This document shows, piece after piece, positions 4,435 through 45,813 of a stretch of DNA of 64,000 nt (the stretch's first letter is position 1; every line of letters begins with the position of its first letter). Below the pieces are notes generated by a model, which was not told where the DNA came from, did not search any database, and was given only the letters and a program-made list of their open reading frames with translations. The DNA lies in the IMG/VR virus record IMGVR_UViG_3300039159_000198; one strand, given 5' to 3'. The DNA is from a virus. Taxonomy: Duplodnaviria > Heunggongvirae > Uroviricota > Caudoviricetes. A program made the translations under genes and the position numbers.

Positions 4435-5046
4435 ATGATGGATTTATTTAATCCTCCACCAATTTTTAATTTAAAAGAAATGAAACACAATTTAGATGTG
4501 GATACATTGGATAATGCGTATATTCAAGTTGTTTGGGAAGATACTCCCGAAAACTTTACGCAAGAAAGAATAAAGTCCGTAAAACAATATTTCACTAAGA
4601 AATACAATTCAACCAACGTAAATGTTATTACAAAGGTTAAAACTAGTGAAGAGACCCAACAAACTATTGATGTGTCTGTTAATATCATGGATAAGAACTA
4701 TCAAAAAGAACTTATCAAATCGTTACTTGAGAGTAAAGGTCAAGACCAATATTTGGACCAAGTGATTGGTATTGATTATATGGTTGAGAATAGAATGGCG
4801 GCGAATGATGTTGAGGTTACACCATTCAAAAAGTGGTACATTAAAAAAATTGAGTTTAGTAACTTCTTATCTTATGGGGAGAACCAAGTGATTGATTTTG
4901 ATAAGTGTGATGGTATTACTGTGGTTGAATCAAATCCACCAAATTTTGGAGGGAAATGTATTAGGTATGATACTGAGATTGAAATCGAATATAATATTGA
5001 TTATATAGTTAATAAGTTAGGTTTTTTACCTGATGAGTTAAAATAA
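4435..5046 (+). CDS. SbcC/Rad50/gp46-like ATPase, N-terminal fragment fused to split-intein IntN
   Basis: IKKIEFSNFLSYGENQVIDFD is an SMC-family N-terminus; Walker A NPPNFGGK is interrupted by intein Cys1. Confidence 0.9.
   Translation: MMDLFNPPPIFNLKEMKHNLDVDTLDNAYIQVVWEDTPENFTQERIKSVKQYFTKKYNSTNVNVITKVKTSEETQQTIDVSVNIMDKNYQKELIKSLLESKGQDQYLDQVIGIDYMVENRMAANDVEVTPFKKWYIKKIEFSNFLSYGENQVIDFDKCDGITVVESNPPNFGGKCIRYDTEIEIEYNIDYIVNKLGFLPDELK
4957..5043 (+). mobile_element. split intein N-fragment (29 aa)
   Basis: CIRYDTEIEIEY resembles intein block A; begins immediately after GGK and ends at stop 5044-5046. Confidence 0.85.
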
Positions 5047-5162
5047 AAATTGCTGAAGATAACGGATACAAAGTTTTAACTATTTGGGATTCTGAATATA
5101 GATGGGGAAATAAAGAAAAAGTTATAAAAAAATGTTTAAAGTTTTTAAAAAATGAAAATTAA
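5046..5162 (+). pseudogene. C-terminal remnant of a Vsr/DUF559-like homing endonuclease
   Basis: Frame from 5046 reads KIAEDNGYKVLTIWDSEYRWGNKEKVIKKCLKFLKNEN*, matching the GYKVLxIWxxE tail of Vsr-like nucleases; no start codon. Confidence 0.7.
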
Positions 5163-5517
5163 AATTGGGGAATTGTATGAAATTTACCAAAAATATGGTG
5201 ATTTAGGGTTTAAAGTTAATACACCATATGGGTATAAGAATATTGAATGGTGTGGTATCACAGAAAAAAATGCGGACATTTATAGGTGTGATTTGGAAAA
5301 CGGTATGTTTATTGAGGGTGCGGATTACCATAAATTAAAAAAAAATAATGATGGATTTACCGTTCTTAAAGAGCTCCAAATAGGAGAAAAAATACAAACA
5401 ATCGAAGGTTTAAGTTCAGTTAAAAACATTCAACTATTAGAAGAGAAAGACACTTTATATGATATTCAGGTAGAGGAGGTTCATCAATATTATTCTAATG
5501 GGATTGTATCACATAAT
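5152..5517 (+). mobile_element. split intein C-fragment (122 aa, no endonuclease domain)
   Basis: IEGADYHKL is block-B-like; block F/G ends His-Asn followed by Thr at 5518. Confidence 0.88.
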
Positions 5518-7371
5518 ACAGTTTTAACAGTCGATTTATTATTATTCCTATTCTTTAATACTACAACCAAAACACAAAGGGCTGAAGAAATTTTTAACAG
5601 ATTTACAGATAAGAATAAAGTAAGTGTTCGTGGAGAAATTTTAATTGATGGTGAGGAGTATATTATTGCTCGTCAAATTGAAAGAAAGATGTCCAAGTCC
5701 GGTGAATGGAATGTGAAAACAGAGTTGGAGTTCTTTAAACGATTATCTGACGGACAACTTCAAAATTTCACCGGAGAACAAAGACGGGAAACAGAAAACT
5801 TTATGAAGAAATCTATAGGTACTATGGATGACTTTTTAATGACCATTGTTACCACAGCGTCAAATCTTGAGGATTTATTGGATGCGAAACCAACTGCCAG
5901 AGGTCAGGTATTATCTAGGTTCTTAGGTTTGGAGTTTTTAAAGAAGAAAGAGGAAACCGGAAAAGAAATCTACTCAGAGTTCTCAAAGGGGATGATATCT
6001 AACATTTATAATACGGAAACCTTAAAACAAGAAAACGAAACCTCAACAACTGATATTGGAAGGTTAAAGGGTGAGATTACTGTGGCGGGTGATAATATCA
6101 CCGAGGTTGACCTATCTCTTAAAAAAGGTCAGGAATATAAGGAGGGGTTATTAAATTCAAAACATAGTGATTTACCTCAGGAACTTATTATTTTGAATCC
6201 GGACAAACTAAAGGAGGAAATTAATACTTATGTTACCAACAGTAAAACGATTCAAGTACAAATTGATAGTGTAAAAATTGTTGAACCAAGTGGGTTTTAT
6301 CATGAGGACAAACATGATGAGGTTAAAGAATTATTAACTAATCATAAAATTCAATTGGGTAATGTGACTCATAAGGTTGGTGAAATTGACTTAATGGTTA
6401 AAAAGTTTGGAGATGGTATTGAGTGTGAGCATTGTGGAATAAAATTGATGGATGCTGCTATCACCAAAAAGAAGATTAGTGAACTTGCGGGATTAAAAGA
6501 AGAGGTTAATATTCATAATAACTTGATTACAGAGTTAGACACTGAAGAAAAAACTTATGTCCAACTGAAAAAAGAGTTTGATGAGTATGAAAGAAACAAA
6601 CTTATCAAGGAGAAGTACGAGGTGTCTTTGGAGTCAAATGGGTTGAAATTAGACGCGGTAAGGTCTAAACTAACAAGATATGAGGAAGTTCAGGATAAGA
6701 TTAAACAGAACAACGATATTGAGACCAAATTGATTAAATCTAATCTTCGTATTGACGAGTTAATCAGTCAAAAACGAGGGTATGAGAGAATTCAAAGTGC
6801 CAATCAAAACCAAATTGATAATTTGATTGCTCGTATTGAAAAAAATAATGGTTTTGTATTGAAAATTGATGAGGAGTTTGAAAAAGAAAAAATCTATAAA
6901 ATCTATAACGAGATTTATGGCAAGAATGGAATTAGTAAAATAATCATGAAAACGATGATGCCCGTGATTAACTCGGAACTTCAAAGGTTACTTCAGGATT
7001 CCTGTTATTTTAACTTGGAGATTCGTATTAATGATAAGAATGAGGTTGAATTTATTATGGTTGATAACTCAACAGGTATTGAGAAATTAATGATGTCAGG
7101 TTCCGGATATGAAAGAACAATTGCATCACTGGCTCTTAGGGCGGTATTAACCAAGGTTTGTTCATTACCAAAACCAAACTTGGTGGCGTTCGACGAAGTA
7201 TTTTCAAAAATTAGTAATGATAATCTCGAAATGGTTGGGGAGTTTTTTAGTAAGTTAAAAGATTATTTTCCAAAAATATTTGTTATTACTCATAACCCGT
7301 TGGTTGGGAATTGGGCGAATAACATTGTCAAGATTACTAAAACCGATAATGTTTCAAAAGTCTCACAATAA
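5152..7371 (+). CDS. split-intein IntC fused to the SbcC/Rad50/gp46-like ATPase C-terminal part
   Basis: Intein end YDIQVEEVHQYYSNGIVSHN then +1 Thr; coiled coil; CEHC zinc hook; MSGSGYE signature; AFDEVF Walker B; ITH switch. Confidence 0.92.
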   Translation: MKIKIGELYEIYQKYGDLGFKVNTPYGYKNIEWCGITEKNADIYRCDLENGMFIEGADYHKLKKNNDGFTVLKELQIGEKIQTIEGLSSVKNIQLLEEKDTLYDIQVEEVHQYYSNGIVSHNTVLTVDLLLFLFFNTTTKTQRAEEIFNRFTDKNKVSVRGEILIDGEEYIIARQIERKMSKSGEWNVKTELEFFKRLSDGQLQNFTGEQRRETENFMKKSIGTMDDFLMTIVTTASNLEDLLDAKPTARGQVLSRFLGLEFLKKKEETGKEIYSEFSKGMISNIYNTETLKQENETSTTDIGRLKGEITVAGDNITEVDLSLKKGQEYKEGLLNSKHSDLPQELIILNPDKLKEEINTYVTNSKTIQVQIDSVKIVEPSGFYHEDKHDEVKELLTNHKIQLGNVTHKVGEIDLMVKKFGDGIECEHCGIKLMDAAITKKKISELAGLKEEVNIHNNLITELDTEEKTYVQLKKEFDEYERNKLIKEKYEVSLESNGLKLDAVRSKLTRYEEVQDKIKQNNDIETKLIKSNLRIDELISQKRGYERIQSANQNQIDNLIARIEKNNGFVLKIDEEFEKEKIYKIYNEIYGKNGISKIIMKTMMPVINSELQRLLQDSCYFNLEIRINDKNEVEFIMVDNSTGIEKLMMSGSGYERTIASLALRAVLTKVCSLPKPNLVAFDEVFSKISNDNLEMVGEFFSKLKDYFPKIFVITHNPLVGNWANNIVKITKTDNVSKVSQ

Positions 7372-32803: not shown

Positions 32804-34714
32804 ATGATAGAAACAGGAAAAATAATAAATGGGGACTGTGTTGAGGTTATGAAAACATTACCTGAAGGTTGTATCGACCTTTTGTGTACGTCACCGCCAT
32901 ATTCAGTTAACGTCAAATATGATGTTTATGATGATACAATACCTATGGATGAGTATTGGAAATTTACAACAGATTGGTTATCGGAGGCGTTTAGAGTTTT
33001 AAAAGACGATGGTAGGATTGCGGTTAATGTTCCTATTGAGACTAATGTTCAAGAACGAGGTGGAAGAATACTATTCAATGCTGAGTTTTGGATGAGAATG
33101 AAGGAAGTTGGATTCCAATTTTTTGGAATGGTTGATTTATCTGAAGATTCTCCACATAGGGTTAGACAAACCGCGTGGGGTTGTTACGATAATGAGACTA
33201 AAGTTATGACAAATAATGGACTTAAATTTTTTAAAGATGTTGATATTGAAACAGATTTGTTTATGACTTTAAACCCCATAACAAAAGAAATTGAATATCA
33301 AAAAGCCTTTGATTATATTGAAAAACCATTTAAGGGTAAGTTGGTAAATATTAAATCTCGCTCTATTAATCTTACGATAACTGAAAACCATAATATGGTT
33401 AGAATTAATAATTCTGAGATAGATATTATACCGTTTAATGAAATAAAACAAGAAACTTTTACTATACCTAGAAAACATAATGGGTTGAAAAATTATGTGG
33501 ATGTGGAAACAATTGTTATACCCCCTGTTGAATATGGGTTGAGAACTAAAAAAATATATAGAAATGAAAATTCATTAATTGTTGATACTGATGATTGGTT
33601 GAGATTTTTGGGGATTTTTTTAACAGATGGTTCATTAACATATGACGTTAAACGAGGTATATATAAAATTTCTATTTATCAAACAAAAACAAATTTTTTA
33701 AAAGAAATTGAAGATTTATTAGAAAGATTACCATTTAATTTTGAATATAAAAAACAAAAAAACGAATATTATTGTTGTTCAAAACAATTAGCGTCATTTT
33801 TACTTGACACTAAAAGTAAAAATTTAAGAACAATACCTGATTATGTTTTTAGTATGTCTAAAAGACAAAAAGAAATATTATTATTATGGTTATTTTATGG
33901 TGATGGTTCTTTTACAAAAAATAATGAATTGTGGAAAATTTCTGTATGTAGTGAAATAATGAAAGACCAAATTATTAGATTATTATTTGAGTCGGGAAGA
34001 ATTTGTTCATTGTATAGTTACTATCCAAAAGATAGGGTTTGGAATGGTAAATTGATTAAATCTAATTATCCAATGACGACTATACAAGTTCTTAATAAAG
34101 AACAAACATATGTGAAGAAAAAAAATATTACAATGGTTGATTATGATGATAAAGTTTATTGTGTGTCAGTACCAAATAAAACATTATTAGTTGAAAAATC
34201 CGGTCAATTAGTTTGGTGCGGTAATTCATGGATGAGTGCTTCCAGTCCTTACATCTATAATCCAAAAGAATGTGTGATACTTGCTTATAAGAAATCTAAA
34301 AAGAAATTAGAAAAAGGTGAGTCTCAATGGTTCGGTACACCAACTAAAATAGTTTTAGAAGATGGGACTTTAAAGAATAAAGTGGTTTATGAGGATGAAG
34401 ATAAGAAAGACTTTATGAATTTGGTGTTTGGTAGATGGGATTATTTTGCGGATACTAAATCATTAACTAAAGCCACGTTTAGTATGGATATACCAACTAA
34501 GGCAATTAAGATTTTATCATATAAAAATGATATTGTTCTTGACCCATTCAATGGGTCGGGAACTAGTTGTTTGGCTGCTGAGATACTTGGAAGAAAGTGG
34601 ATAGGGATAGAATTGAGTGAAGAGTATAGTAAAATTGCTAGAAATAGAATTTTAGAATATCAAGTTAAAACAACCCAAACAGAATTAGAGTTTAAAGAGA
34701 ATTATAAGTTATAG
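32804..34714 (+). CDS. DNA methyltransferase (N4-C/N6-A, beta class) containing an intein
   Basis: TSPPY and DPFNGSGT exteins flank a 348-aa intein. Confidence 0.92.
   Translation: MIETGKIINGDCVEVMKTLPEGCIDLLCTSPPYSVNVKYDVYDDTIPMDEYWKFTTDWLSEAFRVLKDDGRIAVNVPIETNVQERGGRILFNAEFWMRMKEVGFQFFGMVDLSEDSPHRVRQTAWGCYDNETKVMTNNGLKFFKDVDIETDLFMTLNPITKEIEYQKAFDYIEKPFKGKLVNIKSRSINLTITENHNMVRINNSEIDIIPFNEIKQETFTIPRKHNGLKNYVDVETIVIPPVEYGLRTKKIYRNENSLIVDTDDWLRFLGIFLTDGSLTYDVKRGIYKISIYQTKTNFLKEIEDLLERLPFNFEYKKQKNEYYCCSKQLASFLLDTKSKNLRTIPDYVFSMSKRQKEILLLWLFYGDGSFTKNNELWKISVCSEIMKDQIIRLLFESGRICSLYSYYPKDRVWNGKLIKSNYPMTTIQVLNKEQTYVKKKNITMVDYDDKVYCVSVPNKTLLVEKSGQLVWCGNSWMSASSPYIYNPKECVILAYKKSKKKLEKGESQWFGTPTKIVLEDGTLKNKVVYEDEDKKDFMNLVFGRWDYFADTKSLTKATFSMDIPTKAIKILSYKNDIVLDPFNGSGTSCLAAEILGRKWIGIELSEEYSKIARNRILEYQVKTTQTELEFKENYKL
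33182..34225 (+). mobile_element. intein with LAGLIDADG endonuclease (348 aa)
   Basis: Starts CYDNETKVMT; TENH block B; GIFLTDGS and LFYGDGS LAGLIDADG motifs; ends VYCVSVPNKT...WCGN with +1 Ser. Confidence 0.92.
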
Positions 34715-40994: not shown

Positions 40995-42455
40995 ATGATA
41001 TTGACTAAAGAAATCGAAATTCGAATTGCCGGTAATGGGTATAACTACTACCGAGAAAATAATATTGACGTAATACCGAATAAGGTGAATAGAATTTCTA
41101 TTGAAATGGTTAACCCAAAAAGTCATTTTATTATTGATGCAAAATGTGATATTTGTGGTAAAGAAGTGAAGGTTCAGTTGAGAAGATATAATCAATCTTT
41201 CAATAATGGGGGATATTATACTTGTTCTTCAAGATGTGGTACAGAAAAAAGAAAAATGACTTTCAATAATAAATATGGGTGTGAAATTCCATTCAAGACA
41301 GATAATTTTAAGGAAAAAACAAAACAAAGTATGTTGGAAAAATATGGTTCGACACATTTTAGACAAAGTAATGTTTGGAAACTTAAAAATTTGAAAAATG
41401 AAAAAAAAATAAGGAAAGACACAATATTTCAAAATTTTTTAATTGAGAACCCTTCTATTATTGGTCAAAATGAGGATAATTTTATTGTTAAATGTGAAAT
41501 ACATGGGGAAAATAAAATTCCTAAAAAAATATTTTCAAACCGAAAAAAAATTGGTACAGAGTTATGTGTAATATGTAAACCAATCGAAAGTAATATTTCG
41601 GGTAAAGAAGTTTTATTATTTAAATTAATAAAAGAAATTTATGATGGAGAAATTATTAAATCATATAAAATTAAAAGGAAAGAAATTGATGTTTTTTTAC
41701 CAGAATTAAATATTGGTTTTGAATTTAATGGGTTGTATTGGCATTCTAATAAATTTCTCGATAATAATTATCATATTGAAAAAACAATATTGTGTGAAAA
41801 AAATAAAATTAGGTTAGTTCATATTTTTGAAGATGATTTTGACAATAAAAATGATATAGTAAAATCGATTGTTATGAATATTTTAGGTAAAACAACTAAA
41901 ATATTTGGAAGAAAAACTGAGGTAAAAAAGATAAGTTCAAATAATGATGTGAAAGATTTTTTAATAAAAAATCACTTACAGGGGTTTGTTAATAGTAATA
42001 TTAATTATGGGTTATATTATAATAATGAGTTGGTTTCGATAATGACGTTTATGAAAAGTCGAAAAATATTAGGGGGTGAATATGGTGATGGGAATTATGA
42101 ACTTGTTAGGTTTTGTAACAAATTAAATTACAGTGTTGTAGGTGGAGCGTCTAAATTATTTAAACATTTTGTTAGTGAATATTCACCAAAAAATGTGACA
42201 TCATATTGTGATATTTCATGGGGTAGTGGTAATTTATACGAAAAAATAGGTATGAAATACGAAGGGTTAACAAAACCTAATTATCATTATGTTATTGATG
42301 GTAAAAGAGAAAGCCGCATTAAATATCAAAAACATAAATTAGTTAAACAGGGGTTTAGTAAAGACAAGACTGAAAAACAAATTATGGATGAACGGGGTAT
42401 TTATAGTGTATATAATTGTGGTAATAAGATATATAGGTTCTATAATTTAAATTAG
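40995..42455 (+). CDS. homing-endonuclease-like protein (zinc fingers, PD-(D/E)XK-like core, GNAT-like C-terminus)
   Basis: CDICG, CSSRC, EIDVFLPELNIGFEFNGLYWHS, VVGGASKL, SYCDISW. Confidence 0.75.
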   Translation: MILTKEIEIRIAGNGYNYYRENNIDVIPNKVNRISIEMVNPKSHFIIDAKCDICGKEVKVQLRRYNQSFNNGGYYTCSSRCGTEKRKMTFNNKYGCEIPFKTDNFKEKTKQSMLEKYGSTHFRQSNVWKLKNLKNEKKIRKDTIFQNFLIENPSIIGQNEDNFIVKCEIHGENKIPKKIFSNRKKIGTELCVICKPIESNISGKEVLLFKLIKEIYDGEIIKSYKIKRKEIDVFLPELNIGFEFNGLYWHSNKFLDNNYHIEKTILCEKNKIRLVHIFEDDFDNKNDIVKSIVMNILGKTTKIFGRKTEVKKISSNNDVKDFLIKNHLQGFVNSNINYGLYYNNELVSIMTFMKSRKILGGEYGDGNYELVRFCNKLNYSVVGGASKLFKHFVSEYSPKNVTSYCDISWGSGNLYEKIGMKYEGLTKPNYHYVIDGKRESRIKYQKHKLVKQGFSKDKTEKQIMDERGIYSVYNCGNKIYRFYNLN

Positions 42456-43751: not shown

Positions 43752-43820
43752 AGTCAGGTGGTGTGTGGCGCACTGAGGAGGTCACACTTCGTAGAATAGG
43801 TTCGATTCCTGTCCTGACTA
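43752..43820 (+). tRNA. tRNA-like RNA, anticodon undetermined (69 nt)
   Basis: Acceptor AGTCAGG/CCTGACT; T-arm ATAGG-TTCGATT-CCTGT; 5-nt D-loop; 8-nt loop AGGTCACA without U33; no CCA. Confidence 0.65.
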
Positions 43821-43870
43821 CAAAAATTAAAAAAAAATGTTAAAGTATTGACAGAGTGAAATAAAAGTAT

Positions 43871-43878
43871 TATCTTTG
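43871..43878 (+). promoter_or_regulatory. Bacteroidota-type -7 promoter element
   Basis: TATCTTTG directly upstream of the permuted tRNA-like RNA. Confidence 0.65.
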
Positions 43879-43900
43879 TAGAAGAAATAAAGTTCTTAAA

Positions 43901-44010
43901 AATATTGAAAATTTAGTGTGGGTGTTGTGTCGACCGGTTAAATTCCGTCCTTGTGTATCTTGATGAAAAGCAAGTAGCTCAGTGTTAGAGCATACACTCA
44001 CTAAAATATT
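43901..44010 (+). ncRNA. circularly permuted tRNA-like RNA (YrlA/Y-RNA-like topology)
   Basis: Terminal stem TTTAGTG/CACTAAA enclosing, in order, a T-arm (43932-49), a loop-closed acceptor-like stem CTTG/CAAG, and a D-arm GCTC-AGTGTTA-GAGC (43977-91). Confidence 0.65.
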
Positions 44011-44155
44011 CTAATTACAAGTTTAGGTCCGTAGGGCTGTTATGGTATGTGAGGAAAATGACTACGGGACAAACATACAACTGTACGAAATAAAGCAGAG
44101 GTCCTTCGCATTTAATGTATTACTGAAAAATGTAATCACCATAACAAGTTAGAAT
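44008..44155 (+). ncRNA. candidate pseudoknotted structured RNA (~150 nt)
   Basis: Closing stem TTCTAATT/AGTTAGAA; hairpin 44021-44074 whose loop TGTTATGGT pairs 9/9 with ACCATAACA (44138-46). Confidence 0.5.
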
Positions 44156-44160
44156 TAAAT

Positions 44161-44251
44161 GGTATTGTAGCTCAGTGGGAGATTCGTCTTCCTTGGTAGA
44201 GCAAGAGTAACGAAAGACTCCGTGCCGTAGGTTCGAACCCTACCGATACCT
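44161..44251 (+). tRNA. tRNA-like RNA with a D-loop hairpin insertion, anticodon non-canonical (91 nt)
   Basis: Acceptor GGTATTG/CGATACC; T-arm GTAGG-TTCGAAC-CCTAC; D-loop carries GGGAGA-TTCG-TCTTCC; 8-nt loop AACGAAAG; no CCA. Confidence 0.75.
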
Positions 44252-44273
44252 CTGAAAAAAAAATAAAAAAAAG

Positions 44274-44305
44274 TTTGACAATTCAAATAAGTTTACTTAC
44301 CTTTG
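44274..44305 (+). promoter_or_regulatory. Bacteroidota-type promoter (-33/-7)
   Basis: TTTG(44274-77), 20-nt spacer, TACCTTTG(44298-305). Confidence 0.7.
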
Positions 44306-44312
44306 TCAAAGA

Positions 44313-44368
44313 TTTAAGAAACAGGTTGACAGGGTCGTAAAACGTTGTATAGTTTTCCTCTTCTTAAA
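44313..44368 (+). ncRNA. candidate small RNA (three-way junction)
   Basis: TTTAAGAA/TTCTTAAA ends pair; internal hairpins GAC/GTC and AAAAC/GTTTT; starts at the expected TSS of the promoter above. Confidence 0.35.
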
Positions 44369-44410
44369 AAAAAAATAAAATAAAATTTGACTTTTAGATT
44401 TAATGTCTTA

Positions 44411-44418
44411 TATTTATT
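44411..44418 (+). promoter_or_regulatory. putative phage late promoter motif
   Basis: TATTTATT immediately before the large RNA. Confidence 0.45.
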
Positions 44419-44419
44419 A

Positions 44420-45310
44420 AACACTTCGGAGAGATACCGAATACGTTCTTAGAAATTATTGTATTATCCATTATGACACTTCGGTGTTGTAAAAAAATGA
44501 TAATCGGCGGTATATCGTCGTTAAATAAATTGATGAAAATCAATATAAACCAAACTTAGTTGTGTTATTAAGTTTGGGGCTTCTGAAAGGGAGCTCGAGT
44601 ATACAAGCGAGATATCAGTGAACCTGTATTACCGAGGATGACTTCGTAGGGAAATGGATTACTGAACAGGCAATGTGGGTGTCTGTTTGAGGTTGGAAAA
44701 CCAAAAAAAATAACTCGTAGAAACTCTGTGAGAAATAAGATTATCCAATCTTATAATTGCGGGTTTCAAAATTAGAGTTGAGTTAAAACTGAAAAGTAAG
44801 ATAAAGAACGAGTGGTGTCGATTTTATCCTTATCAAATATCTACCAAGATGTTGATATGAACTACACTTGAAATTTCGTAATGGGGACATTACACGGAGG
44901 AGGTTAGTATCTTATTGTCCAAAAGATAACGAGGCTTACGACAGACCCCTTCTTCGACACATCCACAACACAATTACTATTTTCAATATGGTGAAAAACT
45001 AAAAAGATATATAGCAAAAGTGTCTGTCAGTCGTAGATGACAAGGTGACTACTTAGTTATGGGCCGTCCATAGCACACAAAGACCGCAAGTTTATGTGTA
45101 TTCTTACCAAAAACCTCTAATCCCGCAAGGATTAATCAGTTCGCAAGATTGAAGAGAGTGTAGTAATAAGAGAGTAATTTACGACTCGAGGAGTGATTGG
45201 TCTAACCAATCGTCACTGAGGATTACATCCCAAAAGGGTGTGGATATAAAGGGAACTAATAATCCTTTTAAAGATTCTCAATAATAGGTTTAATCTCAAC
45301 CTAATTAGCC
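44420..45310 (+). ncRNA. large ornate ncRNA, GOLLD-like (~890 nt)
   Basis: ORF-free and relatively GC-rich; many GNRA/UUCG hairpins (GACAC-TTCG-GTGTT, TTGAT-GAAA-ATCAA, three tandem CGCAAG hairpins); long-range pairs such as GTGTCGA/TCGACAC; bounded by a promoter and terminator; beside tRNA-like genes. The GOLLD assignment is from recalled resemblance only. Confidence 0.6.
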
Positions 45311-45345
45311 AAAAAGGTAACACATTTATTTGTGTTACCTTTTTT
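45311..45345 (+). terminator. intrinsic terminator
   Basis: AAAAAGGTAACACA/TGTGTTACCTTTTT 14-bp perfect stem. Confidence 0.85.
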
Positions 45346-45378: not shown

Positions 45379-45813
45379 ATGAAAACATCTATAAACATAA
45401 TAAACAAAAAGGTCAAATTTGAATATGAATTTATCCAAACAGAAATTGCGGGAATTTCATTAAAAGGAAGTGAAATAAAATCAATCCGTCAGGGGAAGGT
45501 ATCCATCTCCGAGAGTTATTGTTATTTTAATAATGGTGAGTTATTTGTTAAGAGTATGAATATCTCCGATTATGGTTATGGGTCATTCCACGAGACAACT
45601 CGGGATAGAAAGTTATTACTTAAAAGAAAAGAATTAAACGATTTGGAGTCAAAACTAATCAATGGACTTACAATCATCCCCTACCGATTATTCACCAATG
45701 ATAAAGGATTAATTAAGATGGAGATTTGTTTATCAAGAGGTAAGAAACTTTACGATAAAAGAAATAGTATTAAGTCTCGGGATATTGACCGGGATATAAA
45801 AAGAAACGAATAA
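45379..45813 (+). CDS. smpB: SsrA(tmRNA)-binding protein SmpB
   Basis: INKKVKFEY, AGISLKGSEIKSIR, RDRKLLLK..EL, LTIIPYRLF, RGKKLYDKR. Confidence 0.93.
   Translation: MKTSINIINKKVKFEYEFIQTEIAGISLKGSEIKSIRQGKVSISESYCYFNNGELFVKSMNISDYGYGSFHETTRDRKLLLKRKELNDLESKLINGLTIIPYRLFTNDKGLIKMEICLSRGKKLYDKRNSIKSRDIDRDIKRNE

Follow-up and report, generated by a model that had tools for sequence, protein, structure and literature searches.

The window, by which we mean the whole 64-kb stretch of phage DNA that was analyzed (64,000 nucleotides), contains a series of structured RNA genes upstream of a SmpB gene. The first of these is a permuted tRNA-like element (43918-44001, plus strand), here called the mimic. 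The features of the locus are as follows.

43848-43878, plus strand: predicted promoter TTGACA (43848-53), 17 nt, TATCTT; 10 of 12 matches in a consensus scan
43885-43917, plus strand: A/U-rich 5' leader starting AAGTTCTTAAAAATATTGAAAA, nearly invariant in alignments of most relatives
43918-43925, plus strand: 5' strand of the closing stem, GTGGGTGT, pairing with 43994-44001 in the position of the anticodon stem
43926-43931, plus strand: junction TGTGTC, counterpart of the tRNA variable loop, with the C48 analog at 43931
43932-43949, plus strand: T arm GA[C]CGG - TTAAATT - CCGTC, 5 bp with one bulge and a 7-nt T loop
43950-43974, plus strand: acceptor-like hairpin CTTGT (43950-54) / GCAAG (43970-74) with a 15-nt closing loop
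43975-43993, plus strand: U8-A9 analog TA, D arm GCTC-AGTGTTA-GAGC (the arm itself at 43977-91), then AT
43994-44001, plus strand: 3' strand of the closing stem, ACACTCAC, pairing with 43918-25
44025-44115, plus strand: inserted structured element of ~91 nt in the interval between mimic and tl2, found only in some relatives
44161-44252, plus strand: tl2, a tRNA-like gene of 92 nt (Rfam tRNA, 37 bits)
44260-45344, plus strand: GOLLD RNA (RF02032, 317 bits), with a 5' domain (44260-44894) and an Rfam-matched 3' domain (44895-45302)
45311-45344, plus strand: predicted GOLLD terminator
45379-45813, plus strand: SmpB gene (PF01668, E = 2.9e-46), with 44 related phage loci

The modules of the mimic come in the order closing stem, T arm, capped acceptor-like hairpin and D arm, and a sequence check found every element that the initial annotation of this DNA had listed. 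The 5' and 3' ends of the RNA would form an 8-bp helix in the place of the anticodon stem, such that the T arm comes first and the D arm last. The initial annotation had paired the ends as TTTAGTG (43912-18) with CACTAAA (43999-44005) and had extended this helix by AATATT. The letters are present, but the conserved register is GTGGGTGT/ACACTCAC, which is both the minimum free energy (MFE) register and the register that covaries in relatives, and alignments showed that the AATATT extension is not kept among them. The acceptor-like hairpin lacks a free 3' end and CCA. Counterparts of U8, A14, G15, C48, G18, T54, T55 and A58 are all retained in the window element. Its MFE fold has exactly these helices, yet the z-score is only -1.17, which is not significant. 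Hence, the single-sequence fold proves nothing and the evidence is comparative. Neither ARAGORN nor Rfam at the gathering score called the element as a tRNA, a tmRNA or a member of another family. A conserved pairing partner was also sought for the leader (43885-43917), and none was found.

The SmpB gene, which lies 1.4 kb downstream, gave access to 44 related IMG/VR phage loci on contigs of up to 321 kb, and BLAST detected the element in about a third of them. Pattern scans of IMG/VR and of JGI/ENA metagenomes added further members to give 38 distinct cores. According to the run records the source metagenomes are mostly freshwater, and the phages are uncultured with genomes of ~310 kb. A covariance model built on the four helices was used to realign 50 distinct sequences, including those of a divergent paralog. 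Standard pairs made up 98.1% of the 999 pair cells as compared to 79.6% in shuffles, in an alignment that is fitted to the model and thereby favors pairing, although the changes are plain by eye. Changes on both sides were seen at 13 of 20 pairs, the observed covariation score was reached by none of 500 shuffles, and in controls where the partners were slid by 1-3 columns pairing fell to 23-58%. These comparative pairings in 50 homologs bear out the view that the element is a circularly permuted, selected tRNA-like fold of the YrlA type.

The individual helices behave as follows. In the closing stem both sides have changed at six of eight pairs, and 99.2% of the cells are paired. Its versions include GTGAGTGT/ACACTCAC, GTGGGTGT/ACACCCAC and GTGGACGT/ACGTCCAC, together with G-U intermediates, among them the window, where a single G-U pair (43921-43998) stands between the A-U and G-C versions of relatives. 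The T-stem pairs covary (AU/UA/UG; GC/CG/UA) with 99.5% of the cells paired, the versions being GAGG/CCTC, GACGG/CCGTC and GTTGG/CCAAC, and in one relative (L010) the T-stem bulge has shifted to the opposite strand. All four modeled pairs of the acceptor hairpin have changed on both sides (CTTG/CAAG, CGGN/NCCG, AACC/GGTT), and the versions found are CTTG/CAAG, CGGA/TCCG, CGGT/ACCG and AACC/GGTT. These three helices were recovered de novo by RNAalifold. The fourth, the D stem, does not vary except for one compensatory A-U pair in a paralog, and RNAalifold offers an alternative in which GTGT is paired with GCAT. Thus, the D stem rests on the analogy to tRNA and YrlA rather than on covariation. 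The junction TGTGTC is near-invariant in the main family and reads AGAGTC or AGTGTC in the divergent paralog.

The divergent paralog, which scores 33-44 bits, has the same topology built from other stem sequences: a canonical T loop (TTCGATT), an AACC/GGTT acceptor with a loop of ~17 nt, and the closing stem GTGTAGTGT/ACACACAC. It adjoins the 3' side of tl2 in many relatives and is missing from the window. Examples are found at these loci.

L012:4651-4770, divergent paralog
L044:4160-4276, divergent paralog
L003:4885-4994, divergent paralog
L046:7071-7193, divergent paralog
L094:5812-5930, divergent paralog

The module order is conserved across homologs, the paralog included, as the initial annotation had anticipated for a genuine permuted RNA. 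A pattern search of 185,579 prokaryote genomes gave no family matches; the distribution is phage-only. No entry of Rfam 15 covers the mimic family.

Tandem-tRNA junctions also give the order T arm then D arm and score 24-35 bits on the family model, and in the clade of the window the D loop is shortened, bulges occur in the T stem and position 56 drifts. These properties could be those of a functionless relic, either such a junction or a YrlA gene decaying after loss of Ro, an origin we hold to be very improbable. Compensatory changes preserve the closing stem, the T stem and the acceptor hairpin in clades where SmpB shares just 72-83% identity with that of the window, and the fold is also retained by the divergent paralog. 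The element is flanked by a promoter and a short tail rather than by tRNA halves, and on this anatomy a tandem-tRNA junction was rejected. The covariation has already largely refuted the relic reading.

One element of the proposed fold did not survive the comparison. The window has U19 in the D loop and A56 in the T loop, which had been read as a compensatory replacement of the G19-C56 elbow pair. Most relatives have the canonical D loop AGATGGTA and the T loop TTCAAAT (G19/C56). In the clade of the window the D loop is shortened to AGTGTTA (U19), G19 is lost and position 56 drifts. Counted by distinct sequence, relatives with U19 have A (4), C (4) or U (3) at position 56; A56 accompanies U19 in the window, L010, L174 and L212, C56 does so in L178, L179, L009 and L186, and U56 in L170/L180 and L171, whereas in L046 G19 occurs with U56. 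Covariation at 19/56, the lack of which the initial annotation had itself listed as a refuting outcome, is absent among homologs. Judged from these alignments the pattern is one of relaxation, not compensation, and the canonical elbow may be weakened in the clade of the window.

Bacteria and mycobacteriophages are known to encode YrlA-type mimics next to Ro genes (Rfam RF02553; Chen et al. 2014, PMC4201824), and the structure of the YrlA module (Wang et al. 2018, bioRxiv 10.1101/312249) shows the L shape of a tRNA with the acceptor closed. The mimic resembles YrlA in its succession of closing stem, junction, T arm, loop-closed acceptor hairpin, UA, D arm and closing stem, and in the agreement of its junction TGTGTC with the uGUuGC junction of the Rfam YrlA consensus. 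Its D arm, GUAGCUCA...UAGAGC, is identical to the YrlA consensus, the U8/A14, G15/C48 and T54/A58 counterparts are kept, and there is no free CCA end. The mimic may also adopt an L-shaped tertiary fold. It differs from YrlA in that the long interrupted stem that binds Ro is replaced by a terminal helix of only 8 bp, and in a T-stem sequence that is not the conserved one of YrlA. Binding by Rsr and modification by TruB and DusA are features of YrlA itself.

The initial annotation had called the element YrlA-like, and the permuted architecture supports that description; membership of the YrlA family fails on Ro adjacency, the 5' motif and the Rfam score. YrlA genes lie within ~4 kb of Ro60/TROVE on the same strand, and a GNCGAAN0-1G motif near the YrlA 5' end is the presumed Ro60 contact (PMC4201824). 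A scan of the 110 nt that precede the junction did not find this motif in the window or in most relatives, and the few scattered matches among relatives are not conserved. The Rfam YrlA model (RF02553) gave 25.6 bits versus a gathering score of 69; under relaxed thresholds the alignment covered the whole model (positions 1-114), with E = 0.012 in 2.2 kb. At the gathering threshold Rfam called no YrlA in 15 phage loci.

A pattern derived from the mimic retrieved 28 stand-alone permuted phage elements outside the family, with a TROVE gene in 15 of the 28 records. In 11 of the 12 loci checked the element lies no more than 1.3 kb upstream of TROVE on the same strand. Three more records have DUF2828 above cut-off and one further match is weak and below cut-off; hence, 18-19 of 28 records with RNAs of this Ro-adjacent type have a Ro-like gene, as compared to none in the mimic family. 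Representatives are given here.

L048-L146, range of the Ro-adjacent phage mimics
L095:6017-6080, Ro-adjacent phage mimic
L083:2424-2488, Ro-adjacent phage mimic
L068:11150-11258, Ro-adjacent phage mimic

These Ro-adjacent RNAs have the same permuted core as the mimic and likewise reside in phage tRNA islands. They have 7-8 bp tetraloop-capped acceptors, long distal stems and a handle motif, none of which is found in the mimic family. They also lack GNCGAA; those adjacent to TROVE share a G(T/A)TACTTC upstream motif, and the RNAs of the DUF2828 records carry an ACAGCAA motif. Both handles were sought upstream of the mimic family and not found; the GTTCTT motif of the leader bears a mere loose resemblance to the phage handle. 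On the Rfam YrlA model the Ro-adjacent phage RNAs score 29.5-47.5 bits, higher than the 25.6 bits of the mimic but all below the gathering score, and thus the missing gathering score of the mimic is not decisive. As the family model also matches tandem-tRNA-gene junctions, the sequence similarity to YrlA is largely generic tRNA-likeness. The closed, permuted architecture is the specific shared feature, and common descent with YrlA is unproven.

The absence of a Ro gene, noted for the window in the initial annotation, extends to the family. None of the nine window open reading frames (ORFs) of at least 400 aa has a TROVE domain, and six-frame searches of 11 family records, five of them 96-100% complete (one of the five with terminal repeats), gave no Ro/TROVE match. 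DUF2828 was not found in seven family records, nor RtcB in five, and the positive controls worked in each search. By absence we mean that no Ro is detectable by the Pfam TROVE and DUF2828 models; a more divergent Ro-like protein would escape them. Three unannotated window ORFs of 453, 557 and 591 aa gave no TROVE or vWA signal, and two of the three gave weak PcfJ-like leads. Four complete phage genomes outside the family (L056, L069, L073 and L109) also contain a permuted mimic and no Ro-like gene. Hence, orphan mimics are not unique to this lineage.

The mimic could nonetheless be a true Y RNA that uses the Ro60 (Rsr) of the host, such that the phage RNA would gate or redirect the host Ro/exoribonuclease machinery. 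Its module order is that of the Ro-adjacent phage elements, other complete phage genomes carry such RNAs in the absence of a Ro gene, and one of these (L073, 64.6 kb) retains the G(T/A)TACTTC typical of TROVE-adjacent elements. The closest bacterial SmpB relatives are from Cytophagales and other Bacteroidota, a class where TROVE occurs. However, TROVE is present in just 21 of 301 sampled genomes of that class (a tally that includes one unpublished genome, G132) and in none of the five bacterial genomes with the closest SmpB. The mimic also lacks all three motifs (GNCGAAN0-1G, G(T/A)TACTTC and ACAGCAA) and is closed by only 8 bp. We therefore regard use of a host Ro as improbable.

Other permuted or tRNA-derived RNAs were compared. 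In the permuted tRNA genes of Cyanidioschyzon merolae the 3' half precedes the 5' half, a linker connects the acceptor ends, and processing yields complete tRNAs that decode and have 7-bp acceptors and an anticodon loop. The mimic, in contrast, has an acceptor of 3-5 bp and encodes no anticodon loop. A permuted functional tRNA gene was thus rejected on anatomy, and the mimic likewise departs from the tRNA family (RF00005), in which the acceptor is a free 7-bp helix rather than a short hairpin closed by a loop, and the anticodon loop has 7 nt. The tRNA-like domain of tmRNA, including that of two-piece permuted genes, is similar in that a T arm and acceptor occur in a non-tRNA near SmpB. Its free chargeable acceptor end, lack of a D stem, tag reading frame and pseudoknots are not features of the mimic, and two-piece tmRNA was also rejected on anatomy. 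No tmRNA was found in the 64-kb window by ARAGORN or Rfam, and all five complete relatives carry a separate one-piece tmRNA, usually ~1 kb or less from smpB on the opposite strand. Phage SmpB thus has its normal partner, which makes it unlikely that SmpB uses the mimic in place of tmRNA.

The gene that follows the mimic is tRNA-like as well. tl2 has an open 7-bp acceptor, and a 6-bp hairpin with a UUCG or UUUA loop is inserted in its D loop. In an alignment of 20 variants its anticodon loop is replaced by an 8-nt loop with the core Y-GAAA-R and two freely varying 5' nucleotides. ARAGORN assigned it inconsistent anticodons (Pro, Thr and a 4-base anticodon), and from its sequence tl2 does not look able to decode. 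It is kept at 84-97% in all relatives and directly follows the mimic in every family contig that reaches past the mimic, with a gap of 8-13 nt in most. Essentially all family contigs of sufficient length share the order mimic, tl2, GOLLD, SmpB, L046 being the exception. The 5' half of GOLLD (44260-44894) is kept at 70-84% in relatives, and Rfam models only the 3' 408 nt. In the literature we found no description of a form lacking both Ro and handle, nor of one linked to GOLLD and to a tRNA without an anticodon.

The claim that the RNA has its own TAnnTTTG promoter at 43871 was borne out by the consensus scan and by the presence of the same block upstream in relatives. The Bacteroidota-type box, TATCTTTG (43871-78), overlaps the TTGACA-17-TATCTT promoter, and the transcription start is a predicted one. 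If the transcript begins at the promoter and stops where the next tRNA-like gene starts, it would be a small RNA of ~120-130 nt. Contigs of RNA libraries from three studies cover the mimic (43862-44227, 43922-44162 and 43935-44178; runs X16, X25 and X35) at depths of 2-7.5, values that do not show the transcript ends and could include DNA carry-over. This coverage is compatible with a low-level or poorly captured RNA and proves neither transcription nor ends. In one metatranscriptome the depth of the mimic contig was 7.5 as compared to 846 to ~13,000 over GOLLD; hence, in that sample the abundant GOLLD RNA does not include the mimic. Freshwater metatranscriptome contigs over GOLLD reach a depth of up to ~13,000.

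These data bear on whether the mimic is a GOLLD accessory, a tRNA-shaped module that together with tl2 would be made with, docked on or enclosed by the GOLLD nanocage. Nearly all family contigs have the mimic and tl2 immediately 5' of GOLLD, and the prediction placed no intrinsic terminator upstream of 45311. In a second lineage (L056, 233 kb) an orphan permuted mimic and GOLLD lie in one tRNA island, and the GAAA loop of tl2 is a common tertiary-contact motif. Known GOLLD RNAs have tRNAs in their vicinity and in some cases within their linker (Kretsch et al., bioRxiv 10.1101/2024.12.08.627333). Those are ordinary tRNAs beside or inside GOLLD, whereas here the neighbors are a sealed permuted mimic and an anticodon-less tRNA-like gene. 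Against a GOLLD role, the mimic model has no matches in the GOLLD-SmpB phages L005, L020-L021 and L023-L029, L046 has the mimic and tl2 with no GOLLD within 7.8 kb, and in the one RNA library the depth over the mimic was ~100-fold or more below that of GOLLD. The sole complementarity found between leader and GOLLD linker, an 11-nt complement at ~44979 that lies in a local linker hairpin, does not covary. Relatives that retain the leader lack it, L051 has it unchanged in spite of a different leader, and this pairing was rejected as coincidental. We consider a GOLLD accessory unlikely.

In most relatives the mimic is the first element behind the promoter and tl2 begins 8-13 nt further on, a position that would also suit a structural end-cap or processing signal, a nuclease-resistant 5' fold that stabilizes the transcript or directs RNase P/Z to tl2. 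Nuclease protection has been raised as a role of the tRNA-like fold (Chen et al., PMC4201824). However, RNase P acts poorly on acceptor hairpins of 3-5 bp, the one acceptor that was cleaved being that of Mycobacterium smegmatis YrlA with 7 bp (PMC4201824), and tl2 has its own complete acceptor/T minihelix for RNase P. An end-cap would also leave unexplained the second paralog retained after tl2, and on these grounds we judge it distinctly improbable. These alternatives and the reading set out below are not all mutually exclusive.

On balance we lean toward the mimic as a Ro-independent, non-chargeable mimic of the tRNA body, the best reading of the RNA. It lacks the anticodon loop needed for decoding and the free CCA end needed for charging, and so can do neither. 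What it would retain are traits of the tRNA body: a coaxial T/acceptor stack, a D arm and counterparts of U8-A14, G15-C48 and T54-A58. The core of the mimic would be the effector (tRNA-like) module of the YrlA design minus the Ro-binding module, and independence from Ro is drawn from that missing module together with the lack of a Ro gene in the phage lineage. A lone module under clear structural selection with no recognizable Ro gene suggests that the tRNA-like part probably works without Ro. The mimic would be made together with the non-decoding tl2 in a phage tRNA/GOLLD/tmRNA-SmpB island and may act by being bound, thereby occupying a protein or RNA that recognizes the tRNA core (D/T stems and elbow). 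For YrlA, an as yet unknown effector with tRNA-binding ability has been suggested to contact the tRNA-like domain at its D/T stems and elbow (10.1101/312249; PMC4201824), as the authors of the crystal structure expect. A decoy or adaptor for a factor that recognizes the tRNA core would extend that effector proposal (10.1101/312249).

In a bolder and doubtful form of this reading the tRNA-like module of Y RNAs would be an autonomous effector without Ro, and the mimic, tl2 and the GOLLD cage would together sequester a host factor. Candidates for the captured factor would be a tRNA-processing, a tRNA-surveillance or an anti-phage tRNA-targeting protein. If true, such a sequestration system would also give a lead to the effector that has long been sought for bacterial YrlA. 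What the tRNA-like half of bacterial Y RNAs does has been a question since 2014, and here that half stands alone. The mimic, at ~85 nt, could thus serve as a minimal natural bait for finding the partner of the tRNA-like module. It also places non-decoding tRNA-shaped RNAs beside tRNAs, tmRNA/SmpB and GOLLD in jumbo phages of Bacteroidota-like hosts.

Several minor observations concern the surrounding sequence. The element at 44025-44115 is 80% identical to a stretch in 29 Flavobacterium psychrophilum phage genomes (the FpV4 group), is absent from most family loci and has no Rfam match; one helix shows compensatory changes (CCGTAG/CTACGG vs CTGTGG/CCACAG). The FpV4 copy lies in a 2.3-kb unannotated gap, 430 nt upstream of the phage tmRNA. 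Upstream of the mimic, the tRNA-like gene at 43752-43821 has a good acceptor and T arm but lacks a D arm, and its central hairpin is irregular. It scores 26 bits on the Rfam tRNA model, below cut-off, and only its 3' 33 nt are common to relatives. The DUF7487 ORF at 40995-42455 was considered as a partner protein and rejected, as it is a homing/HNH endonuclease gene absent from all related loci. This 486-aa gene (phrog_3339, E = 1e-101) lies between DHH and NUDIX genes, and the insertion is absent at this site in L105 and L057. Weak intein-splicing matches below cut-off were seen in an SbcC/Rad50-like gene (5152-7371) and in a DNA methylase gene (32804-34714), the latter of which also has a LAGLIDADG domain. 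Finally, Rfam tRNA matches spanning 134-196 nt in two other phages (L056:3273-3424, 4498-4631 and 5134-5329; L114:514-669 and 890-1033) are tRNA genes with large insertions or introns, situated in phage tRNA islands.
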